A stretch of DNA of 64,000 nucleotides from a virus, in IMG/VR virus record IMGVR_UViG_3300045988_183115; one strand, given 5' to 3'. A program made the translations under genes and the position numbers. Below the pieces are notes generated by a model. It was not told the origin of the DNA, ran no database searches, and saw only the letters and a list, made by a program, of their open reading frames with translations. Below are positions 10,111 to 61,017 of the stretch, one piece after another. How positions within the stretch are numbered: the stretch's first letter is position 1; every line of letters starts with the position of its first letter.

Positions 10111-10398
10111 ATGAGACATTTTAAGAAGGCAAAAGAAGAATTAATTCCTTATATTAACAAAATTCTTGAAAAAAAGAATATTGATTATTTCTATAGAGAT
10201 AACGAAATAATTGTAGATTTATCCGGGAATCAGTTTCATAAGATTGTTACACGAGCTAAGTGCGAAATGCTTAATGAAAAGGATGGGTTGGATAACAGAC
10301 ATACATATTATGTATCCAAAGCAGAAAATATTGCCCGCTTAATGAGCGACAATCCGGAATATGAATTCTTTATAGAATATCCATATAATCCAGATTAA
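10111..10398 (+). CDS. hypothetical protein
   Basis: ATG preceded by AAGAAGGGAG. The ORF track's longer 10018 start lacks an RBS and overlaps the promoter motif. Confidence 0.55.
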   Translation: MRHFKKAKEELIPYINKILEKKNIDYFYRDNEIIVDLSGNQFHKIVTRAKCEMLNEKDGLDNRHTYYVSKAENIARLMSDNPEYEFFIEYPYNPD

Positions 10399-10506
10399 AT
10401 AATTTTGAAAATTAGAACTATTTGTTTAGCTACCTTAAAATGTCTTTATAGACTTTTTAGGGTAGCTTTTTTTGTTCGCACATTGCGAAGAAAGGAACGC
10501 TGCACT

Positions 10507-11154
10507 ATGGCAGAATTAAATGAAATTATGTCAGACAAAAAGGCTGGCACATATAAAAAGGATTTTTTTAATGTAGCATCATATATCGAAAAATTTTATG
10601 ATGCAGAAGAATATCTTTTCAATTTCGAAGCTAATGATTTGGTTGAAACCAGATCAGGAGCAAATGATTATGTTGAGGAACATACTCCTCATGTGCTACA
10701 ACATATAGCTCCAGAAATTTCATGGGCTATAAATAAAATTTCTGAAGCTACAAAAGAAAAGAAAGGAATTAAAGGCGCTAAGAATGGTACCTTCCATCCT
10801 ACATGGTTTGATTCATTAGAAAGTGCATCTGAAGCATTAGAGAGAGTTTTAATTGCTTCAAATAATACCTCTATTATTTCTAAAATTCAGAACTGGTGTG
10901 AGGATAGAGATATTTATTACAACGACAGAAGACATAATCGTTTAGTTATAGATATAGTATCTAATACGGTTATAGGAAAAGGAATTGTAAAAGGTACAAA
11001 TTATGATATTCCTTTTGACTGTCATGGACTTCATATTGTTTTAGAATATACAATTTCTAAAAAAGATGGAGAATTTGCAGTCTATGATATGTATCCATAT
11101 TTCACAGAAGAGGATTGGAGCATAATTAAAAAAGCTAAAAATAAAAAATCTTAA
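10507..11154 (+). CDS. hypothetical protein
   Basis: ATG at 10507 (MAELNEIM) preceded by AAAGGAAC. Upstream extension to 10405 is unlikely. Confidence 0.5.
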   Translation: MAELNEIMSDKKAGTYKKDFFNVASYIEKFYDAEEYLFNFEANDLVETRSGANDYVEEHTPHVLQHIAPEISWAINKISEATKEKKGIKGAKNGTFHPTWFDSLESASEALERVLIASNNTSIISKIQNWCEDRDIYYNDRRHNRLVIDIVSNTVIGKGIVKGTNYDIPFDCHGLHIVLEYTISKKDGEFAVYDMYPYFTEEDWSIIKKAKNKKS

Positions 11155-16116: not shown

Positions 16117-16128
16117 AATAAAAGATTT

Positions 16129-16184
16129 TATCGAAGAATAGCAAGAAAACTACATCCGACAATAGTCAGTTGCGAGTAGTTCAT
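16129..16184 (+). repeat. 56-nt hairpin element, copy A
   Basis: TATCGAAGAATAGCAAGAAAACTACATCCGACAATAGTCAGTTGCGAGTAGTTCAT sits in the 5' UTR of the 16217 gene. Confidence 0.7.
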
Positions 16185-16216
16185 AAATTTAATAATGGAA
16201 AGGATTGTAATAATTT

Positions 16217-25486: not shown

Positions 25487-25504
25487 TATTTCTGTCATAT
25501 TATA
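25487..25504 (+). promoter_or_regulatory. conserved promoter-like motif with no ORF downstream
   Basis: TTATTTCTGTCATATTAT. No ORF follows until 25953; a strong terminator lies at 25872. Confidence 0.5.
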
Positions 25505-25908
25505 TATGCTTTCAAATTAATGGAGTATTTTGAGTATTATTTACAACATCCTACTTTTTAAAATAAAAAACAATTTGGTTATTATATTTGTTGTAAGCTG
25601 ACTCAGATTTATATTTTAAGGCATAATATATATAGCATCCTACTTTTTAATACTCAAATAGTAAGTATGATTATATCAGGTTTTCTTTTGAGATATCCTG
25701 CGGGATTAAATAAAGAATAAACTTGTTATAATCATAAATCCTTTTGCTATATGCTGATGTATTAAAATATAAAAAAATATATAATAATATTTATGCTAAA
25801 CATCCTACTTTTATTCTAAATTATGAAAAATTATTTTTTTTGTTTAACGCTGATTATTATATTATTTGAGTCTTAATGTCATAGTAAATAAACTATGATA
25901 TTAAGACT
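25505..25908 (+). ncRNA. candidate non-coding transcript / iteron-bearing region between recA and the 844-aa gene
   Basis: Promoter-to-terminator unit without an ORF. Three direct copies of (A/G)CATCCTACTTTT(T)A at 25546, 25635 and 25799. Internal inverted repeat TATGATTATA/TATAATCATA. Confidence 0.35.
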
Positions 25909-25912
25909 TTTT
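25872..25912 (+). terminator. rho-independent terminator
   Basis: AGTCTTAATGTCATAGTAAATAAACTATGATATTAAGACTTTTTTTG. Confidence 0.7.
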
Positions 25913-25952
25913 TTGTAAGAACTATTGTGTTTATTTTTTTGGAGGTTATATT

Positions 25953-29031: not shown

Positions 29032-29059
29032 AACATTCAATTAAAAAGGAAAAATCAAT

Positions 29060-29115
29060 TATCGAAGAATAGCAGGAAAACTCTATTCGACAATAGTCAA
29101 TTGTGAATAGTTCAT
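29060..29115 (+). repeat. 56-nt hairpin element, copy B
   Basis: TATCGAAGAATAGCAGGAAAACTCTATTCGACAATAGTCAATTGTGAATAGTTCAT. Here a terminator follows rather than a gene. Confidence 0.7.
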
Positions 29116-29140
29116 AAAATAATTTAGAAATTAATATTTT

Positions 29141-36027: not shown

Positions 36028-36128
36028 ACATATAAACTTTTTTAGGAAAGAATTATAATAATGGACTTAATAAAAATTAAAAAATCATATCAAAATAAAA
36101 ACAAAGCAATTTGGAGGTCAACAAAATA

Positions 36129-36995
36129 ATGATTAAACAAATTACAAAGATTATTGGAATAGTATTTGCCTTTCTTATTACTCAAATTGTATGTACATTG
36201 GGCGTATTTATTTTTAAATTGTTTTCTGATTCACAATGGTATGATAATTTATATGTATGTATAGAAACAGGTAATTTACTTTCATATAGTTATCTTAGTA
36301 TGCTCAGTGAATTAATTATGCCTGCATTATTTGTTTCCGATATTATAATACTTGGGTTTGTTATGCTTAAAGAATATAAAGTTAATAAATCAATCATATT
36401 TATTTCAAAATTATCATTAAAAGATGTCAAGACATTTATTTTAACAGGCATTATTATGAATTTTTTAGCTTCTGTGGTAATAGATTCCTTACCTAATAAT
36501 TTGGTTTCTAATTCATATAATTCTTTGATGAATGTTGCTGTAACCGGAAATTGGCTTCAAGTACTCTTAATAACAGGTGTTATTACGCCAGTTGTTGAAG
36601 AATTAATATTTAGATACGGTATTACAAAAATAATAAAGCAAAACAAATTCTTTAAGAAACCAGATGTAAGCTCAATTTATATATCAGCTTTCGTTTTTGG
36701 ATTAGTACATTTTAATATTATTCAAAGCACTTATGCATTTATTTTCGGTATTATATTAGCCTATGTATATATAAAAACAGATAATTTATTGTCCTCTATT
36801 TTAATTCATATTGGAGTTAATGCAAGTAGTGTATTGTACTCTTTTATGCCTGTTATGTTACAAAATATTTGTCTAATCGTAATGAGTATTATATTTTTCA
36901 TAATTGTTATCAGAAATATTTTAGTAATAAGAAATAACAGTTCACATTCTAATGTAAATAATTTTCTGTCATATCTTCTTTATCAAACAAAATAA
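36129..36995 (+). CDS. CPBP (CAAX protease / Abi) family intramembrane metalloprotease
   Basis: Multi-TM protein. The conserved motifs are EELIFRYGI (EExxxR) and FGLVHFN (HxxxN/H). ATG at 36129 follows GGAGG. Confidence 0.75.
   Translation: MIKQITKIIGIVFAFLITQIVCTLGVFIFKLFSDSQWYDNLYVCIETGNLLSYSYLSMLSELIMPALFVSDIIILGFVMLKEYKVNKSIIFISKLSLKDVKTFILTGIIMNFLASVVIDSLPNNLVSNSYNSLMNVAVTGNWLQVLLITGVITPVVEELIFRYGITKIIKQNKFFKKPDVSSIYISAFVFGLVHFNIIQSTYAFIFGIILAYVYIKTDNLLSSILIHIGVNASSVLYSFMPVMLQNICLIVMSIIFFIIVIRNILVIRNNSSHSNVNNFLSYLLYQTK
36961..36978 (+). promoter_or_regulatory. conserved promoter-like motif (extended subclass) overlapping the 3' end of the CPBP gene
   Basis: AATTTTCTGTCATATCTTCTTTATCAAACAAAATAAAGGAG; the motif lies inside the last codons of 36129..36995. 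Confidence 0.55.
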
Positions 36996-38283: not shown

Positions 38284-38433
38284 ATGAAAGAAAATGGTAA
38301 ATATACAAGAATAAAAAAAGAAATTCAAAATTGGGAAATTAAAAGGGACCAGTATTCGGAATCCGGTAATGAATTAGAAGCTGACAGATGCCAGAATCGC
38401 ATTGATGAATTATATAATTGCTTATGGCATTAG
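38284..38433 (+). CDS. hypothetical small protein (49 aa)
   Basis: ATG follows AAAGGAGTTAA. The ORF ends immediately before hairpin element copy D. Confidence 0.4.
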   Translation: MKENGKYTRIKKEIQNWEIKRDQYSESGNELEADRCQNRIDELYNCLWH

Positions 38434-38434
38434 T

Positions 38435-38490
38435 TATCGAAGAATTGTAAGAAAATTCCATCCGACAATAGTCGGTTGTGAGTAGTTCAT
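38435..38490 (+). repeat. 56-nt hairpin element, copy D (consensus-like)
   Basis: TATCGAAGAATTGTAAGAAAATTCCATCCGACAATAGTCGGTTGTGAGTAGTTCAT. The perfect palindrome CCGACAATAGTCGG lies at 38462..38475. The Gmk-like gene starts 16 nt downstream. Confidence 0.75.
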
Positions 38491-38505
38491 TAGGAGATTT
38501 TTAAT

Positions 38506-39130: not shown

Positions 39131-39148
39131 TAAATCTGTCATATATTA
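39131..39148 (+). promoter_or_regulatory. conserved promoter-like motif
   Basis: TTAAATCTGTCATATATTA lies ~50 nt upstream of the small ORF at 39191. Confidence 0.5.
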
Positions 39149-39190
39149 AATGTCTTTAAAAAATATTTTAATTAAGAAAGGATTTAACAA

Positions 39191-39304
39191 ATGGGAATTA
39201 CAGCAAAGCCTTTTGGCAAGAAGAAATCAATTTTTGTAAAGATGGAGAATAGTCTTTTAAAGGAAAAGGAAGAAAACAAGAAGAAAAATAATAAGGCAGA
39301 ATAA
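39191..39304 (+). CDS. hypothetical small basic protein (37 aa)
   Basis: ATG follows AAGAAAGGA. Lys-rich. Short, so low confidence. Confidence 0.3.
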   Translation: MGITAKPFGKKKSIFVKMENSLLKEKEENKKKNNKAE

Positions 39305-39451
39305 TTTATTATTCAGCTTTAACATTTTCCTTTATTGTTTTTCAATAAAAGTAAATAGTGAAACTCAACCTAAGCATATTGCTTACCTGTAAAAGGCAGG
39401 ATTTTAATAATAAAGATTAGAGAAAAAGAAATAAAATAAGAGGGACAGTTT

Positions 39452-43053: not shown

Positions 43054-44847
43054 ATGTCAATGTTTGAACATGTAAAAATTGGAGAATTAACAAAAAAGGT
43101 TATTGAGTCAGGAGTTACAGTGTGTGAACATAACCATCCAGGAGGCTCTTTGTTTGATGCCGTAGATGAACCTAAAAGTTATTTAGATGCTGCATTTAAT
43201 GCAGGATATACTAAATTTGCTGTTACGGACCATGCATCATTTTCAGCAATGCAAACATGTATTGATTACGCTAAGAAAATAAGTACTGAGGAACATCCTT
43301 TTAATATCATTTATGGCGTAGAGGCTTATATTGAAGTGCCACCATTTAAGATAAATGAGCAGATTGGCCATATGATTATGTTAGCCACTTCAGAAAGAGG
43401 CAAACATATTATTGATAAGTTAAATTCTAAGGCTTCTGAAAAAAGAATGGGAAAGCCTGTTATTACAATATCAGATTTAAAGAAATATAACTTTAACGGT
43501 GATATAATAGCAACTTCTGCTTGCGTTTCGGGTGCACCAGCTCTGCAATTATTATCAGATGATGTTTTGGATAAAATGATTAACAGAGAAAGAAAAGCAC
43601 AGCAGCATACTACTGAAAAAGACGAGCTAGTTATACGTGATTGTATAAGTCCTGATGATAAAGAATATCTTTCAGCTAAAGATGAATTTGAAAGGGTATC
43701 GGCAGATTTAGATGAATTGATTAATATTCGTGATTCCAAGGAACTTAAATCAGAAAGAACACAGATTTCAAGAAAATTAAGAGATGCAAGAAAGTGTTTA
43801 AATGATGATGATCCAGAGCTTATTAAACTGATTAACGAATATGAGGAGATAAATAATAAAATTCTGGAAGCTAAAGATAAAATTCCTAATGTCAGAAAAT
43901 TAGTTAATGCTAAGAAAGCCGAGTTAAAGGATATAAGTCTTAAAGTAGAGGAATATATTAATCATGAAAATAAGATACAGCATTATGAATCATTAAAGAA
44001 AAGCCCAATAGAATTAATGTCTGAAGCAGAAAAGACAATGCTTTTTTATCAGGAAATTTTTGGAGCAGGTAATTATTACATTGAAGTTCAGAATCATGGG
44101 CTTGAAATGGAAAGCAGAACATATCCTGTGTTAGCTCAGTTAGCAAGGAAGCATAATATCCCATTAGTTGCTGCTAATGATGCACATATGGCAGATAATT
44201 CTGATAGAAGTATTGATATGCGTAATGTAGCTAAATTTTTAAGATTTATTAAGATAAGTGAGTCGGAATCAGATAAAGAGTTATATGTAAAAACACCTTA
44301 CGAACTTGCTCAGGCCTTATCAGCTATATTAACAGATGATCAGGTTGCAGAAGCACTCAATAACTTAAATGTAATTGGAAAAAGATGTGCTTATATTCCA
44401 GAAAAATCTAATCATTATCCAGTATTTGATAAGAACAAGGACTCAAACGAATTATTAAGATCTGAAGCAATTAAGGGAATTAATTGGAGATATCCTAACG
44501 GGAAAGGATGGGATGAAGAACATCAGAAACGAATGGAATACGAACTTAATATTATCATTCAGATGGGCTTTGCCGATTATCATTTAATTGTAAAGGACTT
44601 CCTGGAATATGGAAGAATTTGTGGATTAGTACCTATGGATAAACTATCAGAAGTACCTTTAACAATTGAAGGTGCAAAAGAGTATGTTAAGGCTCACAAT
44701 TATAATACCGGAATTGGAATAGGCATTGGAAGAGGTTCAGGTGCCGGTTCATTGGTTACATATTTACTTGGTATTACCGGAATTGATCCATTTAAGTATA
44801 ATCTGATTTTTGAACGATTCTTAAATCCAGAAAGAGTAAGTATGCCT
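43054..44847 (+). CDS. dnaE: DNA polymerase III alpha (DnaE-type), exon 1: PHP domain + coiled-coil insert + palm N-part, up to the SMP of the SMPDxDxD motif
   Basis: PHP-like N-terminus. [15 protein letters not shown] and [15 protein letters not shown] match Dna[41 protein letters not shown] matches the DnaE palm. The ORF reads through into the intron to 44895. Confidence 0.8.
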
Positions 44848-45787
44848 AAATATATTGGGCGTTCAGCGTGGACTCTAACTCAGAGGTGTGCTTAATATTT
44901 TATTATTAAGTGCTAACGGTAGAAGTTGAATAAGACTGCTATATAAAGTGTCACAACAGGATATATAGCTTAACCCATAGACGAAGCAGCTTCGTAAGAG
45001 AACCTACGGTCCTAATATTTTTATATAAAAGATATTGAAGGATAGCAGGCGATACCGTGCTAAGATTATAAATAATATTATATAAATAAGGAGGTGTATA
45101 TTTATGATAGATTATATCAATTTTACATCATTCCTTGAAAAAGGTGAAAAAATAGTAGAAATTAAAAATCACCACGAATATTACATAACTTCATATGGAA
45201 AGATTTTTAGTATAAAACAAGGGAAAATTCGACAACTTAAACCTTTTTTAGATAGTAAAAAGAATTACAGGATGATAAGATTAGATAATAAAAAATATTT
45301 ATTGCATCGATTAGTTGCGATGAATTTTATTCCTAATCCTTATAATCTACCAGAAGTTAATCATAAAGACAAAAATAAACAAAATTGTAAGGTGAATAAT
45401 TTAGAATGGTGTACTAGAAAAGACAATTTATATGATAGTTATAAAACTATGTCTCCTGTAAGAAATTATAAGTGTTGTAAATTATATAAAGGAGATATAT
45501 TAATTGATAGATTTGAAAGCATATTAGCAGCAGCTCGATATGCTAAAGAAAAATATAACGCAAGTTATTCCTCAATGCATAAATATTTAAAATGGAATGA
45601 CTTAAAAATTGTTCGTATATAATATTATTTATTTTAAAGTGTAACGACTATCCTTTTTAAGGAGTACAACTGAGAATGGTTACAGTTGGAAGTGCGTTGA
45701 AATATAATATTAACAATATTATATTGAGATATAGTCTAATCCCACTTATACAAGTGTTAAAGTACTACGAAAGTAGGGGTATATTTG
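44848..45787 (+). mobile_element. group I-like self-splicing intron interrupting dnaE, carrying an HNH homing endonuclease ORF
   Basis: Protein homology places the junction at SMP|DIDSD. The 5' exon ends in U (44847) and the intron ends in G (45787), as group I splicing requires. The flanks of the endonuclease ORF are GC-richer and look structured. Confidence 0.6.
45104..45622 (+). CDS. HNH homing endonuclease (intron-encoded)
   Basis: YRMIRLDNKKYLLHRLVAMNFIPNP...EVNHKDKNKQNCKVNNLEWCTRKDN is a classic HNH_3-type phage homing endonuclease signature. RBS is AAGGAGG. Confidence 0.8.
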   Translation: MIDYINFTSFLEKGEKIVEIKNHHEYYITSYGKIFSIKQGKIRQLKPFLDSKKNYRMIRLDNKKYLLHRLVAMNFIPNPYNLPEVNHKDKNKQNCKVNNLEWCTRKDNLYDSYKTMSPVRNYKCCKLYKGDILIDRFESILAAARYAKEKYNASYSSMHKYLKWNDLKIVRI

Positions 45788-46543
45788 GATATCGATAGTG
45801 ATCTTGCTCTTGGAGTAAGAGAAAAGACAATTGAGTATGTAAGAGCTAAATATGGTAGTGAAGCTGTTGTTGGAATTATTACAGAATCAAGACAGCAGGC
45901 TAAAGGTGCTATCAGAGATGCTGCAAGATATTATGGAAAGAAAGCTTATGATGATGAAAAGAAATTCTTATCTTTAGGAGATCAGATTCGTAAGAAAGTG
46001 CCTGCTAAAGCAACTAATTTTGAAGATATTGTTGGCATGAAAGATACTAATAAGGTTGATGAATTAGGCATTAATATTCAGGACAGCATTTCTTTGTTAG
46101 ATTTCTTAAAGGATGAATATAATAGTAATCCAGATGCTATTTCTATTCTTAATATTGCAGCTCATTGTGAAGGTATGCTTACGACATACGCACAACATGC
46201 CGCAGGTGTTATTATTTATGATAGTAATGATGTTACTGATTATATTCCTATTAGAGATGGAAAAAAGGGAATTAAAACTACAGAAATGGACATGATTCAG
46301 TGCGAAGCTAATGGATTATTAAAAATGGATTTTCTTGGATTAAAAACTCTTACAATTATTACTGACACACTCAGAATGATTCAGAGAGATACAGGAGAAG
46401 TAATTGATGTAATGAATATTCCATTAGAGGGTCCTAAAGCTGATAAGGTATACAAAGAAGTATATGCAAAAGGAAGAACTAAGAATGTTTTCCAGTTTGA
46501 GTCAGCCGGTATGAGAAATAACCTTAAGAAGTTATGCTCATAG
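45788..46543 (+). CDS. dnaE: DNA polymerase III alpha (DnaE-type), exon 2 (palm/thumb segment), ends with its own stop codon
   Basis: DIDSDLALGVREKTIEYVRAKYGSEAVVGIITESRQQAKGAIRDAARYYG and VFQFESAGMRNNLKKL are colinear with the E. coli DnaE region after SMPDFDVDF through GVFQLESRGM. Confidence 0.8.
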   Translation, partial: DIDSDLALGVREKTIEYVRAKYGSEAVVGIITESRQQAKGAIRDAARYYGKKAYDDEKKFLSLGDQIRKKVPAKATNFEDIVGMKDTNKVDELGINIQDSISLLDFLKDEYNSNPDAISILNIAAHCEGMLTTYAQHAAGVIIYDSNDVTDYIPIRDGKKGIKTTEMDMIQCEANGLLKMDFLGLKTLTIITDTLRMIQRDTGEVIDVMNIPLEGPKADKVYKEVYAKGRTKNVFQFESAGMRNNLKKLCS

Positions 46544-47544: not shown

Positions 47545-47555
47545 AAGAATGATAT

Positions 47556-47611
47556 TATCGCAATTAAGCAAAAAACCCCAACCGACAATAGCCGGTTGTG
47601 GGTAGTTTAAT
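47556..47611 (+). repeat. 56-nt hairpin element, copy E (diverged)
   Basis: TATCGCAATTAAGCAAAAAACCCCAACCGACAATAGCCGGTTGTGGGTAGTTTAAT. The palindrome is CCGGCTATTGTCGG-type with compensatory changes. Confidence 0.65.
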
Positions 47612-47632
47612 TACAAGGATAGGGAAGAGAAT

Positions 47633-49165: not shown

Positions 49166-49197
49166 AAAGAAAGGAATTTTATGAAAACTTTAAATAT

Positions 49198-49253
49198 TAT
49201 CGAAGAATTGTAAGAAAACTCCATCCGACAATAGTCGGTTGTGAGTAGTTCAT
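49198..49253 (+). repeat. 56-nt hairpin element, copy F (consensus-like)
   Basis: TATCGAAGAATTGTAAGAAAACTCCATCCGACAATAGTCGGTTGTGAGTAGTTCAT is near-identical to copy D. Confidence 0.75.
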
Positions 49254-49276
49254 GCAAATACAGCAATTAATATAAT

Positions 49277-52092: not shown

Positions 52093-53778
52093 ATGAATAA
52101 AACAGGTATTGAAGATTTAATAGCAATGAATGCTTTATATCGTCCTGGCCCTGAAAAGTTTATACCTGATTTCATAGAAGGTAAAAAGGATGCATCTAAG
52201 ATTAAATATTTATGTCCTCAATTAGAGCCAATTCTGTCAACTACTTATGGACAGATAGTTTATCAGGAACAGGTAATGCAGATTGTTCGTGATTTAGCAG
52301 GATATACATGGGGGCGTTCTGATTTAGTCCGTAGAGCTATGTCAAAAAAACATCAGGATGAAATTGATGCTGAAAGACACACTTTTGTATATGGTAATGC
52401 TGATACTAAAAAAGAAAATGAAGCATTAGTACCAGGATGTATTGCAAATGGAATACCAGAAGAAATTGCTCATAAAATCTGGGATGCGATGGTTGACTTT
52501 GCTAAGTATGCGTTTAATAAGTCACATGCCACTGCTTATGCTGTTACATCATATTGGACAGCTTTTCTTAAGTATTATTATCCGGCTTATTATCTTACAA
52601 ATGTAATAAATCATACTGATAAGATTGATGAAGTCGCTGATGATATTAGTGATGCCCTTGATTTTGGAGTAAAGGTATTGCCTCCGGACATTAATGCTTC
52701 AAATTTACATTGTGATGTTGTAGATGGGAACATTTTGTATGGTCTGAGTAATATTAAGAATGTTGGATCAGAAGCAGCTAAAATTATTGAAGATAGAAAT
52801 GTTAATGGAGAATATTCTGATATTAAGGATTTTATCAAACGAACAAATATTAATGCAGAAGCATTAAGTTCCTTAATTAAAGCAGGTGCTTTCGATTGCC
52901 TTGGTTATACAAGAACAATGATATCATTAGATATGATTTGTATGAAAGAAATTCAGGATACAATTAAGAAAATCAGAGAGAAGAGTAAGTTTATTGAAAA
53001 CGCAAGTAAAGTTATTGAATTTGTGGAAGATTATATTGATCTTGATGAGTTTAAGGAAAGAATTTCAGAAGAAAATATTTCCTTTCAAGTTACTTCAAAA
53101 AAGATGCCAACTAAGGATTCCATAATTAAACGTATCAATTCAGCTAAGACAGTTATAGAAAGCTTAGAAGATGATCTTGAAAATATAGATATTGATTATG
53201 TAGAAGATGATTTAGGTCAGATTCTAAATGATGAAAAAGAAGTGTTAGGTGTTTATATTACAGGGCATCCAATTGATGAGTATAATATTTATACAGATCC
53301 CATTTCTGATATTTCAACAGAAGTTAACGATGTATCTGGTATAATTAAAAATCTTGTTGTAAGAAAGGATAGAAATGGATACGAATGGGTAACTTTTGAG
53401 GTAGAAGATAAAACAGGTTCTATTAATGGTGTATGTTTTTCTAAAGATTATGCAAATATTAGAGACTTACTTGTTAATGATGCTAAATTATGTTTATCAG
53501 GAAAAATTCAAGTAGATGATTTTAGATCTTCAGATGACGAAACTGTATATCAGATTATTGTTAAGTCTGTTAAACCTTTAAAGAAAAATAAGTCTTCATA
53601 CAGATTTATATGTACTGTTTCCGAAGTAAACGATGTTCTTGATTCTATTAATGAATATCTGGTAGATAATGACGGGGATTATTTATATTGGCTTGATTCA
53701 ACAACCGGAATTGAACATTTATGCAAGAAATTCATTAACCCTGATATGTCAGCACCTTCAATAGTACGCAAATGCTAA
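52093..53778 (+). CDS. dnaE: DNA polymerase III alpha (DnaE-type), C-terminal piece (fingers, beta-clamp-binding, OB-fold region), separately expressed
   Basis: EDLIAMNALYRPGPEKFIPDFIEGKKD continues E. coli DnaE (FEDMIALVALFRPGPLQ) directly after the end of exon 2. Further matches include YQEQVMQIVRDLAGYTWGRSDLVRRAMSKK. The C-terminal OB-like part includes VVRKDRNGYEWVTFEVED. Confidence 0.8.
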   Translation: MNKTGIEDLIAMNALYRPGPEKFIPDFIEGKKDASKIKYLCPQLEPILSTTYGQIVYQEQVMQIVRDLAGYTWGRSDLVRRAMSKKHQDEIDAERHTFVYGNADTKKENEALVPGCIANGIPEEIAHKIWDAMVDFAKYAFNKSHATAYAVTSYWTAFLKYYYPAYYLTNVINHTDKIDEVADDISDALDFGVKVLPPDINASNLHCDVVDGNILYGLSNIKNVGSEAAKIIEDRNVNGEYSDIKDFIKRTNINAEALSSLIKAGAFDCLGYTRTMISLDMICMKEIQDTIKKIREKSKFIENASKVIEFVEDYIDLDEFKERISEENISFQVTSKKMPTKDSIIKRINSAKTVIESLEDDLENIDIDYVEDDLGQILNDEKEVLGVYITGHPIDEYNIYTDPISDISTEVNDVSGIIKNLVVRKDRNGYEWVTFEVEDKTGSINGVCFSKDYANIRDLLVNDAKLCLSGKIQVDDFRSSDDETVYQIIVKSVKPLKKNKSSYRFICTVSEVNDVLDSINEYLVDNDGDYLYWLDSTTGIEHLCKKFINPDMSAPSIVRKC

Positions 53779-53800
53779 TTTAATATTTATTTTATGTTTT

Positions 53801-53829
53801 ACCGCTGTTTATTGCAGCGGTATTTTTTT
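53801..53829 (+). terminator. rho-independent terminator
   Basis: ACCGCTGTTTATTGCAGCGGTATTTTTTT. Confidence 0.85.
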
Positions 53830-53848
53830 ATGTAAAGATTTTTAAAAT

Positions 53849-53866
53849 TGTATCTGTCATATATAT
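53849..53866 (+). promoter_or_regulatory. conserved promoter-like motif heading the CPBP-unknown-sigma operon
   Basis: ATTGTATCTGTCATATATAT lies ~30 nt upstream of 53891. Confidence 0.55.
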
Positions 53867-53890
53867 ATTAGAAAGGTTGGAGGAAAATAT

Positions 53891-54802
53891 ATGATACTTA
53901 GTAACAATAACAGTAATATTAAGGAATTAAGAAATAAAAAAAATAAGCATGATTTAAATTCTTATATGGATTTTATGGTGAAAAACAAAATGAAAAGTAA
54001 TTCTTTCTTTTCAAAATCAAAACAGTATATAAAGATTTTTATTCCATTTATTATTTCTGTTTTTATAATTTTATTTTCAATGTTTATTGCAACATTTATA
54101 GACAGTCTATTAAATATGTATATGAATGATGCAGGAGGAATTTCAACTAAAATAGATTATGAAGGATTTCGATTAATTTACACAATATCAACATATACAT
54201 TAATGTTTGTTATGTGCCTTATTTGTATAAAAAGCTCATTTTACAATTATAAAAAAGATTTGTTTATGAAAAATAAATTAGTAGTAAATTGGAATTTTGC
54301 ATTTTGTTTCATATTAATTTCTGTAATATTGCAGCTTATTTCAGGAATTCAAATGCATTTTGTAAATGTATCAGATATTGATTATGGAAGTTTAGGAATA
54401 AAAACAATTATATCTACAATAATAGCAACTTTTGTGGCACCTATTATTGAGGAATTGACTTTTAGATATATAATTTATGGCTATGCATATAAAGCAAGCA
54501 ACAATAAATTATGTGCAAATATAATCCAAGCAGTTTTATTTGGAATAATTCATTTTAATTTTATTTTATTCCCTATATATGCTTTTGGCGGATATTTGTT
54601 AGGTGCTGTAAGAGATAAATATGGTATTAAACTTAGCAGCTTATATCATATTCTAATAAACTGTGTGGCATTAATACCATTTACGTTTTTTATAACAAAT
54701 ATATATTTACAGGTATGCATTTTAATAGTCTGCATAATGAGTTTAATTTATTTTGTAATTAAGTGTTTTGAAAATATCAATATAGAAATTAAGGAGCAAT
54801 AA
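53891..54802 (+). CDS. CPBP (CAAX protease / Abi) family intramembrane metalloprotease, second copy
   Basis: Multi-TM protein with IIEELTFRYIIYG (EExxxR) and FGIIHFN (HxxxN). Paralogous to 36129..36995. Confidence 0.75.
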   Translation: MILSNNNSNIKELRNKKNKHDLNSYMDFMVKNKMKSNSFFSKSKQYIKIFIPFIISVFIILFSMFIATFIDSLLNMYMNDAGGISTKIDYEGFRLIYTISTYTLMFVMCLICIKSSFYNYKKDLFMKNKLVVNWNFAFCFILISVILQLISGIQMHFVNVSDIDYGSLGIKTIISTIIATFVAPIIEELTFRYIIYGYAYKASNNKLCANIIQAVLFGIIHFNFILFPIYAFGGYLLGAVRDKYGIKLSSLYHILINCVALIPFTFFITNIYLQVCILIVCIMSLIYFVIKCFENINIEIKEQ

Positions 54803-54805
54803 TTT

Positions 54806-55201
54806 ATGGAAACAAATATGAATAATGAATTAAAAAATAAGTCTATAAGTGATATCCTTGAAGCTTCTTCAACGGATTTATATGAATGGTATTTAATTAA
54901 TTTTAAGAAAGAAATTCCTAGATCAGATGAAATAGATTTATTGGAAATAGGAAATTTATTGAGTGAAGTAGGAAATTATTTTACCTATTTTTCCTCAATG
55001 CATTCTATTTTAGATTCAATGGTAAAAGAAATGAAATTACACAAAGAGTCTTCAGATAAATGTAAAGAGCTTATGATTAAACGAGATATATTAGGAACCT
55101 TTGAAGAGCAATCTAAATTTACATATAATGCAATTAGTAGAATATGTACAATGAAAATAGAAGCAAATAATGAATTAAAAATGCTAGGACATCAATGTTA
55201 A
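54806..55201 (+). CDS. hypothetical protein between CPBP protease and sigma factor
   Basis: 131-aa ORF starting 4 nt after the upstream stop. No recognizable motif. Confidence 0.55.
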   Translation: METNMNNELKNKSISDILEASSTDLYEWYLINFKKEIPRSDEIDLLEIGNLLSEVGNYFTYFSSMHSILDSMVKEMKLHKESSDKCKELMIKRDILGTFEEQSKFTYNAISRICTMKIEANNELKMLGHQC

Positions 55202-55213
55202 GAGGAGATTTTT

Positions 55214-56242
55214 ATGGCAGATAAGAATTTATTATTAAATAAAAAAAACAATAAAGATGAATATATTGATGAATTATTTGATACAAATAAACCAATAGAA
55301 AACATAAATATTTTATCAGAGGATAATTATACCGATATTTTAAATGATAAAGAGATTTTAAATGAAAAAGAGAAACTATTATTAGAAAATAATATAACTT
55401 ATTATATTAAATCATTCGCTGATTATCCGGTTTTATCCAAAGATGAAACTCTTAAATTATTTGAAGAGATAAAAAAACATCCTAAAAAGAAAAAAGAAAT
55501 AACCGAAAAATTGATTTTATCTAATATGCGTTTAGTCATCAGTATTGCTAAAGCTGTTACAGCTAAAACGCAAAGTTTTGAAATGGATGATTTATGTCAG
55601 GCCGGTATTTTCGGGTTATACAGAGCTATACAAATGTTTGATTATAAATTAGGATATGCATTTTCAACTTATGCAACTCATTGGATTAGACAGAGTATAT
55701 ATAGAGAATTAGCCAATTATGATTTATTAGTTAGATTCCCTGTACATGTAAGAGAACAGGATTCTTTTGTTAAGACTACATTTGTGGATTTAACTAATAA
55801 ACTTCAAAGAAAACCTACAATTGATGAATTATATGATGTAGTAAAACAAAGATATCCTCTTTTAACTAAAGAAATGCTTGTGCATATTCAGAGTTTTAAT
55901 GAATTGGTTTCATTAGATGCACCTATTCAAAGTGATGAAGGCCATGACGATTCATGTTTGGCTGATTATATAGAAGCTCCTGAACCTAAAGTTGAAGATA
56001 CGATTATTCAAAAAGAAATGAAAGAACTGCTTTGGAAAGAAGTTGAAGATTGTCTCACTCCTAGAGAATTATATGTAATTAAGGGTAGAATGGGATATGG
56101 CTCAAAAGTTAAAACTTTACAAGATATAGGTACTGAATGGAATGTATCCAGAGAACGAATCAGACAGATTGAATCAAAAGCAATAAAAAAGATTAGAGTT
56201 CGTTTCAGACGGAAAGGATATAGTATACAATCTTTTATGTAA
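55214..56242 (+). CDS. sigma-70 family RNA polymerase sigma factor
   Basis: Region 2 is NMRLVISIAKAV...DLCQAGIFGLYRAIQMFDYKLGYAFSTYATHWIRQSIYREL. Region 4 HTH is LQDIGTEWNVSRERIRQIESKAIKKIR. Confidence 0.85.
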   Translation: MADKNLLLNKKNNKDEYIDELFDTNKPIENINILSEDNYTDILNDKEILNEKEKLLLENNITYYIKSFADYPVLSKDETLKLFEEIKKHPKKKKEITEKLILSNMRLVISIAKAVTAKTQSFEMDDLCQAGIFGLYRAIQMFDYKLGYAFSTYATHWIRQSIYRELANYDLLVRFPVHVREQDSFVKTTFVDLTNKLQRKPTIDELYDVVKQRYPLLTKEMLVHIQSFNELVSLDAPIQSDEGHDDSCLADYIEAPEPKVEDTIIQKEMKELLWKEVEDCLTPRELYVIKGRMGYGSKVKTLQDIGTEWNVSRERIRQIESKAIKKIRVRFRRKGYSIQSFM

Positions 56243-57071
56243 TATATAAATAAAATGCAGTTATCAATAGGTAGCTGTATTTTTTTTATGATTACACTTC
56301 CTTTAAGTGTAATATGTCATACACCTTTTTTAGAACCTTTTTATTATTTTCTTTTCCATTGATACGCTTTTTATTATTAAAATATAAAAATTAGAGCCTT
56401 ATATAATACATTTGATTATTCCTTAATAGCGTTTTAAGACTTAATATAATAACCGCCAGAATATTATTAAGGATTAAAAGCGTATAACTATTATTGTCAT
56501 ATCCTTATACAATATCATTTATCAGCTTAATACATTTTGTGTTTATTTCCCTGGTAATTCCTTACCTGTCTCTAGCAAGCACTTCATTTATCCCAATTAA
56601 TGCCTTTAATACACTAATAAATAATATAATTCCCTCATATATAATATATGATAATTACAAAAATTATGATTACTAGATTCCTGTAAATCTATTCTTCGCC
56701 CTGCAAATGCCTTAGTAAGCCCAATAATCCCATTTCTATCTCCAATAGCTGCATTCTTATACACTAATTCTTTCTTATTTGCTCTTAGATCTATTTCCTT
56801 TACTCTATCATTCCTATATATGTTTCCAGTAATTCCATTAATTAACTTTAGTAAATAATAATTATATCCCATTAATCAGTTATATTTATTTTTCTCACTG
56901 ATCATACAGTCTATTGTACCCAATTAATCCATATATAATTGCTAATATTACCAATTATATGTTATCAAATTAACATTTTTTATCTCTTAAATCAGCATAT
57001 GATAACTACATCATGGTATTATTCTGACACATATAAGGCATTTTATTGGCTATGCAACGGATAATACATTA

Positions 57072-57328
57072 CTATATATTGTTATCATTATTACATTTAT
57101 GTATCAAATATTTAGCTATATATTGTTAATTTTATTACACAAATTTTTCTATTCTATAACATAATGTTGTTATTTTTAATGTATATTAAATCATATTTTA
57201 TATCTATATATTGTTATTATTTTTGTATCTTAGCTATATTTTAATAAATCTTAAATAACTATATATTGTTAATAAAGTTAACATATTAAACTAATATATA
57301 ACAATAAACGTACAATATATTGTTATTA
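57072..57328 (+). repeat. iteron-like direct repeats (5 copies of CTATATATTGTTAWT) within a 1.3-kb gene-free AT-rich region
   Basis: Copies at 57072, 57116, 57204, 57259 and 57316, plus a partial inverted copy near 57291. Spacing 44-88 bp. No ORF with an RBS in 56243..57523. Confidence 0.6.
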
Positions 57329-57474
57329 TTTTTTACAAGTGAAGGCATAGTATACCCAATAAAGTGCTTAGAAAAACACAAAAACGGGATATTTTAATAA
57401 ATAAAAGGCATTTACATTTAGTTGCTGTCTTATTTTAACACACATCAATTATTTTATGTAAAATAATAATTCAT

Positions 57475-57492
57475 TTTTTCTGTCATATTAAA
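57475..57492 (+). promoter_or_regulatory. conserved promoter-like motif
   Basis: TTTTTTCTGTCATATTAAA lies ~38 nt upstream of 57524. Confidence 0.55.
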
Positions 57493-57523
57493 AATATAAC
57501 TAAATAAAAGGAGAATTAATTAT

Positions 57524-58465
57524 ATGCAAAAAATGAATTACGAAAATTTTCTTAAACATCTTAAATTCGAATTACTTCAAAATATTGAAGATATTACACC
57601 AACAGATATAGTTTGCACATCAGATAAGCTTATTTTTCATTCTAAAAATCAGTTTATGTGTCCCTTAGAATTTAAATTAAATCAATTATATAAACAATAT
57701 TTAAATAATTCGTCAATAGAAGAAATTGCATTGTCAATATCTGAAGCATTTTATAGAAACAAAAATTCTAATGGTAGTGAATATAAACTTAATAATTTAG
57801 CTCCAGAAATTAATTTAAATGATATAAAACACTATATTATACCTCAATTAATACAAAAGCCGGACAATATGGAAGATTTAAGCGGTATTCCTCATAGGCC
57901 ATTTTATGAGTTCGAAATAATTTATAATGTGATCATACCTAAAGAAAATTCAGAAGGTACAATGTTTGTAATTGATAATAACTATATGAGAGACATACTG
58001 AAAATTGATGAAAACGAATTGTACAATCTTGCAATTCATTCAATATATTCCAACAAATATTTTATCAGTGTATTAGGTGATTATTTTTTGACGCAACTGG
58101 CAGATGATGATAATTATGAAAAAACAAAGAAAGAATTATTTTCTCTAAGTAATTCTGATGGGTTTGAGAGCAAATGTATTAAAGGAATATATGCAATTCA
58201 AAATATAATTGACTTTTATAACACAAGTGCAATTCTGAATAATAATTTGCTTAAGAATATTTCAGAGAAACTGAAAACAAATTTATACATTGTTCCTGTT
58301 ACAGCACATATTCTGTTGATATGTAAATACAATGAATTTACTCCTGAAGAAATTCAAATGGCATTAAAGATATTTGGTATTCAGGAAGAAGAAGATTATC
58401 TGAGTTCAGATATATTTATATTTAACAAAGAATCAGGTGAATTAAGTGAACTACCCACCACCTAA
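57524..58465 (+). CDS. hypothetical protein; stop codon overlaps the left-end hairpin of the IscB element
   Basis: 313-aa ORF with AAAGGAGAATTAA RBS. C-terminal codons ...ELPTT-stop lie within CCCACCACCTAAAGGTAGTGGG. Confidence 0.6.
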   Translation: MQKMNYENFLKHLKFELLQNIEDITPTDIVCTSDKLIFHSKNQFMCPLEFKLNQLYKQYLNNSSIEEIALSISEAFYRNKNSNGSEYKLNNLAPEINLNDIKHYIIPQLIQKPDNMEDLSGIPHRPFYEFEIIYNVIIPKENSEGTMFVIDNNYMRDILKIDENELYNLAIHSIYSNKYFISVLGDYFLTQLADDDNYEKTKKELFSLSNSDGFESKCIKGIYAIQNIIDFYNTSAILNNNLLKNISEKLKTNLYIVPVTAHILLICKYNEFTPEEIQMALKIFGIQEEEDYLSSDIFIFNKESGELSELPTT

Positions 58466-58737
58466 AGGTAGTGGGCTTCTGTTAAATGGTTCACCAGACT
58501 AAGTATTCAGAAATGGATACTACGATATTTAGGTTATGATACCTTCGGTTGACGCAACAGACCGTTGCTCTATCGTACATATTTAAGTTAGGTCAGAGTA
58601 AGAACAGCCTTGTGATATGTACATAAAAGCCTTTATATCATTGTCGAGTTGAAGTCGGAACAATCGTATGGTAAACAGTACGACAAAGTACGCATCACCT
58701 ACTATTAAGTAGAGTATTTATAAGGAGGAACTTATTT
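58466..58737 (+). ncRNA. putative IscB omega RNA scaffold (IS left-end region upstream of iscB)
   Basis: A 270-nt GC-enriched, ORF-free stretch lies immediately 5' of iscB and begins with an imperfect hairpin. This is the position where IscB omega RNAs are known to be encoded. No tRNA features. Confidence 0.5.
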
Positions 58738-59997
58738 ATGGTTTATGTGATTTCACAAGATGGTAAACCACTAATGCCCTGTAGTAACTCTATAGCAAGA
58801 TTGTTACTTAAACAAAGCAAAGCAAAAGTTAAGAAACGTGAGCCATTTACAATTAAATTGACTTATGAAACAACAAATTACACTCAAGACTTAACTCTTG
58901 GTGTAGATACCGGAAGCGGAACTATTGGCACTTCTGTAAGCAAAGACAATGGAGATATTATCTATATGTCGGAAGTTGTTATAAGAAACGACATTACCGG
59001 CAAAATGACACAAAGAGCAAAGTATCGTAGAAACAGACGAAATCGTAAAGCTCGTTATAGAAAAGCAAGATGGTTAAATCGTGCTAATTCTATTAAGAAT
59101 GATAGATTTAGCCCTACGATGCAGAGTAAGCTTCATAGTCATGTTAAAGAGATAAAATATATTAAATTTATTCTTCCGATTACAGAAATGGTATTTGAGA
59201 CAGGTCAGTTTGATACTCACCTTATGAAAAATCCAAATCTTGCTAATCCTAAAATTAAACATTGGGGTTATCAGAAAGGTATTAATTATGGGTTTGAGAA
59301 TACCAAAGCGATGGTTCTTAATCGAGATAATTATACTTGTCAATATTGTAAAGGCAAACATAAGGATAGTAAGTTAGAAGTTCATCATATTTTATTTCGT
59401 AGTCAGGGGGGTTCTGATGAAGAAAGTAATCTAATTACTCTGTGTCATACCTGTCATAAAGATTTACATAGTGGAAAAATTAACCCCAAATTGAGTGGTA
59501 AAGTTAAAGGTAATCTTAAATATGCCACACAGATGAACTCTATTCGTAAACAGCTTTTTAAATTATATCCAGATGCAGTTGAGACCTTCGGATATGTGAC
59601 AAAAGCTAACCGTTTGCTTCTTGGCATTGACAAAGAACATTATTATGATGCCTGTACGATTGCAACACAAGGCAATATATTTACTGTAAAATCCAACCTT
59701 TACAAAAAGAAATGCATTTCAGATGGTGATTTTCAAAAAACAAAAGGGATTCGTTCAGAACAGCCTATTATCACTGATAAGATTTGTGGCTTTAGAAAAT
59801 TTGACAAAGTTCGATACTTTGGAAACAAATATTTTATCAAGGGTAGAATGTCCACTGGATATGCAGTTCTCATGGATATAGATGGTAACAAGGTTGATTT
59901 TTCGGCAATGCCAAAAGGATACAAGACACCTAAATTGAGTAATTGTAAACGCATAATGGCAAGGTCAACTGAAATGATACAGACCTTGGTAATTTAA
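58738..59997 (+). CDS. iscB: IscB RNA-guided endonuclease (PLMP domain, split RuvC with inserted HNH)
   Basis: PLMP motif is QDGKPLMPC. RuvC-I is LTLGVDTGSGTIGTSV. Arg-rich bridge helix is RAKYRRNRRNRKARYRKARW. RuvC-II glutamate is in ITEMVFETGQFD. HNH is CQYCKGK...HHILFRSQGG...NLITLCHTCH. RuvC-III is EHYYDACTIA. Length 419 aa. Confidence 0.8.
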   Translation: MVYVISQDGKPLMPCSNSIARLLLKQSKAKVKKREPFTIKLTYETTNYTQDLTLGVDTGSGTIGTSVSKDNGDIIYMSEVVIRNDITGKMTQRAKYRRNRRNRKARYRKARWLNRANSIKNDRFSPTMQSKLHSHVKEIKYIKFILPITEMVFETGQFDTHLMKNPNLANPKIKHWGYQKGINYGFENTKAMVLNRDNYTCQYCKGKHKDSKLEVHHILFRSQGGSDEESNLITLCHTCHKDLHSGKINPKLSGKVKGNLKYATQMNSIRKQLFKLYPDAVETFGYVTKANRLLLGIDKEHYYDACTIATQGNIFTVKSNLYKKKCISDGDFQKTKGIRSEQPIITDKICGFRKFDKVRYFGNKYFIKGRMSTGYAVLMDIDGNKVDFSAMPKGYKTPKLSNCKRIMARSTEMIQTLVI

Positions 59998-60100
59998 CGC
60001 CATTCATTCCACGGTCTAAAGACCATGGGTTTTCTGGCTAAAACATTATAAAATAGAATAAACAATACAATATATATTAAAACAGAAAGGAAAGAGAAAG

Positions 60101-60622
60101 ATGATTATAACTATATTAGTAAATGTAGTCTTTGTTGTTTCATTGATTATGCTTAGTTTTTATTTTGTGACTGCAAACATATACGATATGACTCTTATAG
60201 ATAAGGCATTTATGTCTTTACTTATGGGAGCATTGCCAGCGCTTGTTAATATAAGCTTTAAAAATTTTATAGCTATTGTGATAGCCTTATTAATCAGTGT
60301 AATGGCTCTTGTATGGATAGCTTTTACAAAATTTTTTGAAAAAGAACATGAAAAAGAACTTCTTTATGATTGTTTGCTTGATGATATATCACAGGATGAT
60401 TTAAAGAAATTCAGACATATGAGCCGTAATGAACAGATTGCTTTTCTAAAGGCTGTTATTACAACTGTAGAATCAACGGAAAAGGAAGAGTCCACTGATG
60501 GGAACGGTAATAAGGTTATTACAACCAAGACAGTAATACAGCGAATACCTTTAATTGAGAATGATGAAGAATTAGCAGAGTATGAACCAATCCTTAGAAA
60601 GGAGAGAAATAATGACATTTAA
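60101..60622 (+). CDS. hypothetical membrane protein
   Basis: 173-aa ORF with GGAAAGAGAAAG RBS. Three N-terminal TM helices. Confidence 0.55.
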   Translation: MIITILVNVVFVVSLIMLSFYFVTANIYDMTLIDKAFMSLLMGALPALVNISFKNFIAIVIALLISVMALVWIAFTKFFEKEHEKELLYDCLLDDISQDDLKKFRHMSRNEQIAFLKAVITTVESTEKEESTDGNGNKVITTKTVIQRIPLIENDEELAEYEPILRKERNNDI

Positions 60623-60887
60623 AGAAGCAAGGAAAGAGGCAAGAGAAATAGCACAGCGAACCGGATATTGGGGATATATTTTTAAAGATAAATCCGGGGA
60701 ATGGTTTACATCAGACTGTAATAATTTTACTTCTGATAATTCATTCTATGTAAATAAGGCCGGTAAGATCCTTAACATGCAAAAATATGAGAAGATAAAA
60801 AAGAAGTTTGATAAGCAGGGGATAAGAGGACTGTGTTTATTTTCGCCCGAATTAATGAAATATATTGAACAGCATGGCGGTTATTAA
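60612..60887 (+). CDS. hypothetical protein
   Basis: ATG at 60612 follows AAGGAGAGAAA and overlaps the upstream gene end. Confidence 0.5.
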   Translation: MTFKEARKEAREIAQRTGYWGYIFKDKSGEWFTSDCNNFTSDNSFYVNKAGKILNMQKYEKIKKKFDKQGIRGLCLFSPELMKYIEQHGGY

Positions 60888-61017
60888 AAATATGATAAAA
60901 AAATTATAATATATAATGATTTTTCTTTAATTTAAGTTAATACATTTACACTACTTAAATATAAAATAGTGTGGATTTTACACTATTTAGATAGAAGATA
61001 ATAAATGGGGGCTATTT

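Follow-up and report, generated by a model that had tools for sequence, protein, structure and literature searches.

The locus at positions 53,849 to 56,242 of the IMG/VR virus record IMGVR_UViG_3300045988_183115 raises the question of whether a large gut element reads its own promoters with a sigma-70 family factor that it encodes itself. The stretch of DNA analysed, hereafter the window, is 64,000 nucleotides (nt) long. It belongs to a phage-like element of about 327 kb from the human gut; an identical copy of the region is present on a 327,449-nt human-gut metagenomic scaffold (ENA ERZ28661053, scaffold_10), and IMG/VR contigs of 95 and 103 kb also hold one. A first-pass annotation, made from the sequence alone, had described about 37 near-identical non-canonical promoters in the window and had named the sigma factor as the prime candidate to direct their transcription. 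Our analysis suggests that the element's RpoD-derived sigma is the likely reader of these promoters, with a probability that we put at roughly 0.5, because the residues facing promoter position -12 are changed in this protein and its relatives (T440 to Y, I or L, and W433 to H or N; E. coli numbering) where the promoters have C and not T.

The window contains 43 copies of the CTGTCAT heptamer, 36 of them on the + strand and seven on the - strand; 34 of the copies are intergenic. On both strands together 6.8 +/- 2.5 copies were expected, and none of 100 shuffles reached 43, which corresponds to an enrichment of about 6-fold. Four additional promoter-like copies in the window are each one base off CTGTCAT. 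At most promoters the start codon lies 40-46 nt downstream of the C of the motif (37 nt at the CPBP gene of the sigma operon), and a hairpin followed by a T tract was found no more than 75 nt upstream of 21 of the 34 motif copies, compared with 4.4% of random control positions. The usual layout is a terminator, the motif, a short leader, a ribosome-binding site and the gene. We read the motif as a promoter because it is enriched and strand-biased, stands at a similar distance from most start codons and is often placed after terminator hairpins.

To describe the promoters, we built position matrices from the 34 promoters of the window and from 97 non-redundant promoters of the family. In its promoter-template form the motif is written TCTGTCATAT. 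The family matrix gave the following profile:

Positions -24 to -18: T-rich.
Position -17: T in 92 of 97 promoters.
Positions -16 to -10: C T G T C A T throughout, as the search itself required.
Position -9: A in 91 of 97.
Position -8: T in 89 of 97.
Position -7: A, T or C in 45, 39 and 11 of 97.
Position -1: T in 73 of 97.
Position +1: a purine in 90 of 97.

The resulting form of the promoter is T-17 C-16 T-15 G-14 T-13, followed by C-12 A-11 T-10 A-9 T-8 W-7, five variable bases (N5) and T-1 R+1. No position from -45 to -25 carried information in the 97 promoters, that is, there is no -35 element. If the invariant A is taken as -11, the TG occupies -15/-14 and the T/purine pair, seven bases past the hexamer, occupies -1/+1. 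On this reading, the motif would be a promoter with sigma-70-type extended -10 geometry and a predicted start site. The -10 consensus of sporulation sigma factors is CATAnnnTA or CATAcanT; sporulation-sigma promoters were considered as the source of the CATA and rejected, since the positions that follow it mismatch the SigK/SigE consensus. A literature search for the motif string gave no related match among the papers listed.

It could be argued that CTGTCATAT, the core of these sites, is bound by another element-encoded factor, an activator or a polymerase subunit not recognised as such, and that the true -10 element is a weaker TwTwwT at +10 to +15, or else that the motif acts at the RNA level. 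A weak T-w-T-w-w-T is indeed seen there, with T at +15 in 73 of the 97 promoters, several large open reading frames (ORFs) belong to no family, and only a minor part of the genome was covered. We nevertheless regard this as very improbable: position -11 of that alternative hexamer is A in just 46% of the promoters, while the invariant A of the motif fits -11 of an extended -10 element, and the intergenic gaps, 85-130 nt long and already occupied by a terminator, are too short to hold another promoter upstream. The window yielded no polymerase-like protein. An ORF of 844 amino acids (aa) was examined as a possible YonO-like polymerase and rejected, as it has neither the DxDGD motif nor a PDB relative, and matches only a PHROG of unassigned function.

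In the next step, we examined the sigma factor itself, a protein of 342 aa. Its regions 2 and 4, described as clear by the first-pass annotation, matched PF04542 (Sigma70_r2, E=1.8e-14, residues 100-167, with FSTYAT-x-WIRQ present) and PF04545 (Sigma70_r4, E=8.7e-11, residues 279-328, with SRERIRQIESKAIKK conserved). The Pfam model of region 3 gave no match; the protein nevertheless aligns to solved SigA chains over residues 42-334 and 93-330, region 3 included and without large gaps over 93-330, and its region 1.2 (YYIKSFADYPVLS) aligns with DPVRMYLKEIG. The NCBIfam superfamily model TIGR02937 was passed (97 bits against a cut-off of 42.9), while the cut-offs of the RpoD equivalog models, on which the protein scores highest, were not reached (172-180 bits at best, against 354-572). 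Scores for sporulation sigmas also remained below the cut-offs, with SigBFG at 98 bits against 234 for the window sigma and SigK at 91 against 252 for its relative P0003. The best non-self relatives are RpoD proteins of Clostridia, at about 37% identity. By these scores the sigma is RpoD-like in build, yet no primary sigma equivalog. The first 60 residues form an acidic tail (15 D/E and 8 K/R) that differs from clade to clade.

The residues that read the TG (H455 and E458) and those of the A-11 region are kept, and Q437 is unchanged. Three other positions differ from nearly all of the 120 best homologues:

Residue 426: K in 114 of 120; A in the window sigma and in the other two clades.
Residue 433: W in 116 of 120; H in the window sigma, N in the other two clades.
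Residue 440: T in 108 of 120; Y in the window sigma, I and L in the other two clades.

In the window sigma, positions 433/434 and 440 correspond to H156-W157 and Y163; P0003 has N433 and I440, and the sigma of the related locus L137 has N433 and L440. Among the 120 homologues, H or N at 433 and A at 426 are confined to this clade, where they occur together with Y or I at 440. The hallmark of group 1 sigmas, the W433/W434 dyad with T440, is absent from the element's sigma. The dyad has been termed invariant and acts on the -12 base pair (PMC10979975). According to PMC2613000, no suppressors other than T440I and Q437H are known for a change of T to C at -12; the same article reviews these E. coli sigma-70 mutants (Siegele 1989, Waldburger 1990). 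The candidacy of the sigma is therefore strengthened by the match of its altered -12-facing residues to C-12 and by the fact that three clades keep both, while the link between protein and promoter is one that we infer. The sigmas of the three clades are only 45-51% identical, whereas the gene order and the motif are retained, the latter identically. We found no second sigma gene in the approximately 670 kb of family DNA sampled.

The sigma gene is part of a compact unit, whose three ORFs lie where the first-pass annotation had placed them. The unit and its boundaries consist of:

53800-53829, + strand: intrinsic-terminator-like hairpin and T tract closing the upstream DnaE-C gene (stem 53800-53822, nine pairs, five of them G-C, then TTTTTTT).
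53828-53836, + strand: class I upstream element TTATGTAAA, at about -42 to -34; its ATG stands exactly 24 nt upstream of the C in CTGTCAT.
53853-53870, + strand: promoter of the unit, T CTGTCATAT ATATAT T A, with CTGTCAT at 53854 and the predicted start at A 53870.
53891-54802, + strand: CPBP/Rce1-like glutamic intramembrane protease, multi-pass, 303 aa (PF02517, E=1.5e-15).
54806-55201, + strand: soluble helical-hairpin protein of unassigned function, 131 aa, directly 5' of the sigma gene.
55214-56242, + strand: RpoD-like sigma-70 factor, 342 aa, with regions 1.2, 2, 3 and 4 and an acidic N-terminal tail.
56252-56291, + strand: intrinsic-terminator-like hairpin and T tract ending the unit (stem 56252-56283, 14 pairs, then a T run).

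The gaps between the genes are 3 and 12 nt, with a Shine-Dalgarno sequence at each, and no terminator-like hairpins were found between them; the terminator-bracketed unit spans 53854-56283. With such short gaps and terminators only on the outside, co-transcription of the three genes is the natural reading of the sequence. The order DnaE-C, CPBP, small protein, sigma is kept in two further clades. The description of the sigma as the last gene of the operon holds for the window element only; both related clades have one more gene, of 324 or 335 aa, immediately after it. This extra gene, as found in L001, has no homology to the DUF5688 gene that lies farther downstream in the window.

Eight promoters of the window, that of the sigma operon included, carry TTATGTAAA at a fixed distance, and we refer to them as class I. 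All three clades have this upstream element in front of the sigma operon, with the variant forms TTGTGCTGA in L001 and TTATGTGAA in L137. The compound class I pattern is specific to the family in IMG/VR, where 10 of 12 stretches lie on the element's own contigs. In gut metagenomes it was found at no fewer than 100 loci, mostly of low guanine-cytosine (GC) content and with several motif copies, on contigs of up to 458 kb. We also noticed a repeat of about 55 nt, TTATCGAAGAATWGYAAGAAAAYTCCATCCGACAATAGTCGGTTGTGAGTAGTTCA, in leaders and intergenic regions (window 16126-16190, 29057-29121, 38432-38496, 47552-47616 and 49195-49259; 17028-17092 in L133), with several copies just past class I promoters. 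RNAalifold folds it into a hairpin with compensatory changes in two of 11 pairs, and it has no Rfam match; it may represent a new cis-regulatory RNA. In addition, downstream of some motif promoters 200-460 nt pass before the next gene, with no ORF of at least 90 aa in between (window 7432-7650, 25492-25952 and 39136-39450); these stretches may be long leaders or small non-coding transcripts.

In the mechanism that we propose, the 342-aa sigma would bind the host core RNA polymerase and direct it to the element's own promoters, which would be -35-independent and of the extended -10 type (T-rich / TCTGT / CATATW / N5 / T-A(+1)). H455 and E458 would read the TG at -15/-14, and the conserved residues of region 2.3 would capture the invariant A-11. 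C-12, a base that ordinary primary sigmas disfavour, would be accepted owing to the hydrophobic residue that replaces T440 and to the broken W-dyad (W433 to H or N). The sigma operon might first be fired weakly by the host SigA holoenzyme, aided by the A/T-rich upstream element, which is speculation on our part; the new sigma would then reinforce its own operon in a positive feedback. The 131-aa protein would probably be a functional partner of the sigma.

A number of observations speak against this mechanism. The sigma operon itself lies behind the motif in all three clades, so that another holoenzyme must fire first, and in classical phage cascades the sigma gene belongs to the class that precedes its own targets. 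The residues of region 4.2 that read a -35 element (R584, E585, R588 and Q589) are fully conserved in the sigma, whereas the promoters have no such element. About 60% of the promoters have a base other than T at -7, where group 1 sigmas capture a T. There is no covariation either, as residues 433 and 440 vary among the clades and the motif is identical. Only about one-fifth of the genome of approximately 327 kb was examined directly. Finally, a different upstream motif, ACACTAYTTA...TATAAA, is present in the window and dominant in a related IMG/VR contig of 244 kb.

This second motif class has the core ACACTAYTTA followed by a TATAAA-like sequence and is partly palindromic (CACTA...TAGTG). It is rare in the window, with core copies at 60949-60957 and 60981-60989, and occurs at least 12 times in 40 kb of the 244-kb contig (L255, L259), where it is written TAGTAATT..ACACTATTTAGATATAAAG. 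Some genes of that contig are near-identical to those of the family, and its 40 kb contain a single + strand CTGTCAT, with CTGTCATAT almost absent. The half-site of the motif resembles the TACACTT palindrome at 56293.

Alternatively, host SigA may read the CTGTCATAT sites as extended -10 promoters of replication and recombination genes, while the element's sigma serves a later or different class, such as structural genes or the ACACTA...TATAAA sites. The motif in front of the sigma operon would then place the sigma in the same class as these genes, which fits the logic of an SPO1-like cascade, as the early genes of SPO1 encode the middle sigma. A TGn with A-11, T-10 and A-9 amounts to three or four of the six matches to TATAAT plus the TG extension, and the sigma has retained canonical -35-reading residues that are unused at the motif promoters. 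A second motif class is present as described above, and the absence of structural genes from 100 loci sampled via class I promoters means that a late module may use other promoters. Nevertheless, we find this explanation rather doubtful. The invariant C-12 and the T-7 missing from about 60% of the promoters are both poor for a group 1 sigma, and so uniform a motif is what a dedicated factor typically has. Moreover, the 273 motif-less upstream regions of the sampled 670 kb did not yield a second abundant conserved promoter motif, only pieces of the repeated leader hairpin and one-base variants of the motif itself, and the changed residues of the sigma are exactly those that face -12.

A useful natural contrast to the element's sigma is provided by L336, an IMG/VR contig of 290,311 nt with 25% GC, which encodes an RpoD-like sigma of 488 aa with W433H and with T440 kept. 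Its 11.9-kb neighbourhood contains no CTGTCAT, and several upstream regions are TATAAT-like, as judged by eye without scoring.

With the sigma as the preferred reader of the motif, we turn to its two companion genes. The first-pass annotation had taken co-transcription with a membrane protease and a small protein as a sign of post-translational control in the manner of an anti-sigma factor, and this suggestion was not supported by what we found for either protein. The CPBP catalytic motifs are all present (EELTFR at 187, FGIIH at 217 and HILIN at 253), along with several hydrophobic segments, and the protein is 42-45% identical to its orthologues in the other two clades. The 131-aa protein gave no Pfam or NCBIfam match, and its PHROG match is only to a family of unassigned function. 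Its 13 homologues all belong to this clade and are 60-70% identical; across the three clades its identity is 62-64%, above that of the sigma and of CPBP. AlphaFold2 models it confidently, with a pLDDT of 87, as two long helices forming a helical hairpin, for which the PDB contains no significant fold match (the best, E=0.46, is an unrelated helical protein). It has no transmembrane segment (maximum 19-residue hydropathy 0.55), and its sequence contains no HxxxCxxC, a separate motif search not having been run.

Under a proteolytic or anti-sigma switch, the small protein would be an anti-sigma, or else CPBP would cleave a pro-sigma. Such a switch would be in line with the packing of three genes between two terminators in an order kept in three clades, with the intact CPBP catalytic motifs, with the constant position of the small protein, the most conserved of the three, beside the sigma, and with precedents, namely the spoIIGA-sigE operon and PrsW/RsiW. 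We consider it improbable, given that neither a membrane segment nor a zinc-binding anti-sigma motif is present in the small protein, which is also without a family or fold match, and that the N-terminus of the sigma is a clade-variable acidic tail and not a hydrophobic pro-sequence. The linkage to CPBP is also loose. In L138, the CPBP gene stands apart from the pair of small-protein and sigma genes, with four small ORFs in between, and the window has a second CPBP paralogue (36111-36995, 36% identical over the catalytic part) directly 5' of an N6/N4 DNA methylase gene, so that CPBP genes are not tied to the sigma. A literature search for CPBP with anti-sigma factors returned nothing relevant among the papers listed. 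From these comparisons, the conserved unit is the small protein with the sigma and does not include CPBP, and a role of the 131-aa protein as a cofactor of the sigma or as a soluble anti-sigma is plausible.

The sigma operon is followed by a region without genes, estimated at about 1.3 kb in the first-pass annotation. We confirmed it at 56243-57523, that is 1,281 nt without a credible gene; by a crude gene call it is the longest non-coding stretch of the window. A non-coding stretch of 1.2-1.4 kb is found at the same place in the three clades, preceded in the relatives by the one extra gene. The features of this region, together with the promoter that follows it, are:

56293-56324, + strand: conserved 5' block, a palindrome TACACTT-N5-AAGTGTA abutting ATATGTCATACAC.
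56325-57069, no strand: AT-rich spacer in which C outnumbers G on the + strand and coding potential is not conserved.
57070-57335, no strand: array of 5-7 palindromic iterons with the core TATATTGTTA and the full form ATAAC-N7-GTTAT.
57454-57496, + strand: next class I promoter, TTATGTAAA, 17 nt and CTGTCATAT at 57480, driving the DUF5688 gene at 57524-58465.

The only ORF of at least 60 aa called in the region encodes 88 aa on the - strand (56606-56872), has no family match and is unconserved in the relatives. Recoding of stop codons was ruled out as an explanation, as all three kinds are frequent in every frame, and a conserved hidden gene was rejected after a six-frame comparison of the clades, which gave no similarity outside the 5' block. 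Neither tRNAs nor Rfam families were detected in 56243-57523, even at permissive Rfam thresholds. The 5' block, by contrast, is invariant in the three clades, even though the proteins on either side share only about 45-65% identity. Within it, ATATGTCATACAC is a variant of the promoter motif with A at -16 and C at -8. The region may be transcribed from ATGTCATAC. The spacer has a GC skew of -0.19, opposite to the rest of the window; the whole region contains 104 G and 185 C, a bias that has the same direction in L001 and L137. The cumulative GC skew shows no lasting change of direction here. The iterons comprise five exact and two near copies within about 270 nt, several of them 44 nt apart; five of the seven exact copies of the window lie within 250 nt, just 5' of the next class I promoter, and L001 and L137 have equivalent arrays. 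We could assign no initiator or ParB-type protein to these repeats. In its organisation the region looks like a protein-bound control region, a replication origin or a partition site.

The window has about 28% GC, and nearly all of its genes are on the + strand and have a Shine-Dalgarno site. Genes for replication, recombination and nucleotide metabolism include DnaE (in three pieces), RecA, RecJ, two UvrD-type helicases, a primase-type zinc finger, a 5'-3' exonuclease, a DNA methylase and a guanylate kinase. Accessory genes encode PARP-like, HD-GYP and GGDEF proteins, a class A penicillin-binding protein, flotillin, the two CPBP proteases, TnpB, and IscB with a HEARO RNA. The 100 family loci sampled carry Cas9, a topoisomerase, a secretion-type ATPase, PcfJ, NAD-salvage enzymes, thymidine kinase, a CCA-adding enzyme and a partition protein. 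No virion genes were found in the window or in these loci. A downstream walk for structural genes, carried to about 92 kb in window-equivalent coordinates, met small ORFs only. Its last query resembles a nucleotidyltransferase, known only from an FQTFHKGH-type motif, that is common to many unrelated phages, so that the 80 loci it returned are mostly not members of the family. The element may be a jumbo phage or a megaplasmid.

Searches for relatives were of limited yield. The operon region had no nucleotide match among deposited phages, and a protein search of 50,697 deposited phage records gave only distant RpoD-like genes, with about 40% identity at best; the DnaE piece had no cultured relative among deposited phages in a protein search. 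Scanning IMG/VR for the 14-mer TTTTTCTGTCATAT gave only chance single matches among the matches listed. A profile-based IMG/VR search for relatives of the sigma, in which low-complexity peptides were queried, gained one distant locus, and a scan of a genome collection returned two unrelated RpoD genes.

Several side observations concern mobile and accessory DNA. At the left end of the window, positions 221-1516 encode TnpB (OrfB_IS605 with a Cas12f-like TNB domain). The relatives diverge upstream of about 1620, and further copies of TnpB/Y1 transposase lie downstream in L133/L134; IS200/IS605 elements therefore appear to be active in the element. The HEARO (omega) RNA at 58446-58659 (Rfam RF02033, 109.8 bits against a gathering score of 83) is located directly 5' of an IscB-type protein of 419 aa (RRXRR and HNH, 58738-59997). 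The IMG/VR copy L152 has no aligned counterpart of 58446-61012, the segment that holds this unit, which suggests a mobile insertion. DnaE, the alpha subunit of DNA polymerase III, is split into ORFs at 43054-44895, 45785-46543 and 52093-53778. A 172-aa ORF (45104-45622), whose L001 counterpart has an HNH_3 domain, lies between the first two pieces, and about 5.5 kb with several promoter-bearing genes separate the second from the third; relatives have two or three pieces. The accessory cluster at 3264-11154 contains the protein with a PARP catalytic domain, the HD-GYP and GGDEF proteins (cyclic-di-GMP turnover), a full class A penicillin-binding protein with transglycosylase and transpeptidase, and a protein with a weak CdiA-type RNase A domain. 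In L156, a gut-metagenome locus of the family, the - strand of 5715-9773 encodes a full-length Cas9 of 1,352 aa (REC, HNH, RuvC and PI) near motif-type promoters.

What is new here is a natural rebuilding of the -12-reading surface matched by a uniform, -35-less promoter class with C-12 in a large family of gut elements. If the sigma does read the motif, this would be a natural sigma/promoter pair with a change of specificity traceable to single residues, and a natural counterpart of the T440I suppressor, with a naturally broken W-dyad that structural work calls invariant. The reading of -12 by region 2.4 and the W-dyad, an old question, would become directly testable. The pair would further offer an orthogonal promoter system for low-GC gut Firmicutes and explain how a very large, widespread gut element separates its own genes from host transcription. 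Many uncultured genomes are concerned, as seen from the 100 or more gut-metagenome loci with the compound promoter. Taken further, a gut family of elements of about 300 kb might run a self-contained, orthogonal transcription with a rebuilt -12 surface, an obligatory small helical partner, positive autoregulation, more than 100 near-identical -35-less promoters, each with its own terminator, and an adjacent non-coding module (palindrome, variant promoter and iterons) as a centre of control or replication; we put this forward as a tentative picture that is possible, if on the unlikely side.

RpoD-like sigmas of very large phages are a known kind (PMC7824862). Like the protein described here, they are full-length sigma-70 factors with regions 2-4, encoded without a recognisable polymerase of the phage's own, so that the host core is presumed to be recruited. 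The present case differs in that it concerns an uncultured, low-GC gut element with Firmicute-type ribosome-binding sites, in that the changes at K426, W433 and T440 are absent from other RpoD-like proteins, and in that the candidate promoters can be read from the sequence. The T440I/Q437H mutants of E. coli share with it the pairing of a T440 substitution with C at -12, and P0003 has exactly I at this position. Here, however, the proteins are natural, Q437 is unchanged, the first W of the dyad and K426 are lost as well, and the specificity is a predicted one. The promoters resemble the extended -10 (TGn) and the Firmicute -16 region (TRTG) in the TG one base 5' of the hexamer, the T two bases further and the lack of need for a -35 element. 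Unlike host extended -10 promoters, they have the hexamer CATATW and not TATAAT, C-16 and T-13 are invariant, and nine consecutive positions are nearly fixed. Thermus phage P23-45 also uses -35-less extended -10 promoters.

Control of sigmas by membrane proteases is known from the spoIIGA-sigE operon, SpoIVFB/pro-sigma K and PrsW/RsiW. The second of these systems is treated in PMC9042235. As in such systems, a polytopic membrane protease gene lies in the transcription unit of the sigma gene; here, however, the protease is of the CPBP glutamic family, both a membrane-anchored anti-sigma and a pro-sequence are lacking, and the protease and sigma genes are not strictly linked.

Phage sigma cascades are represented by gp28 and gp33/34 of SPO1 and by gp55 of T4. 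In these cascades, as proposed here, a phage-encoded sigma diverts the host polymerase to a uniform promoter class, and the late promoters of T4 are of the -10 type only. The SPO1 cascade is summarised in a passage of PMC13401047. Whereas the SPO1 and T4 sigmas are highly diverged or truncated, the sigma of the element is close to RpoD, and, unlike theirs, its gene carries its own promoter class, which suggests autoregulation over a simple cascade.

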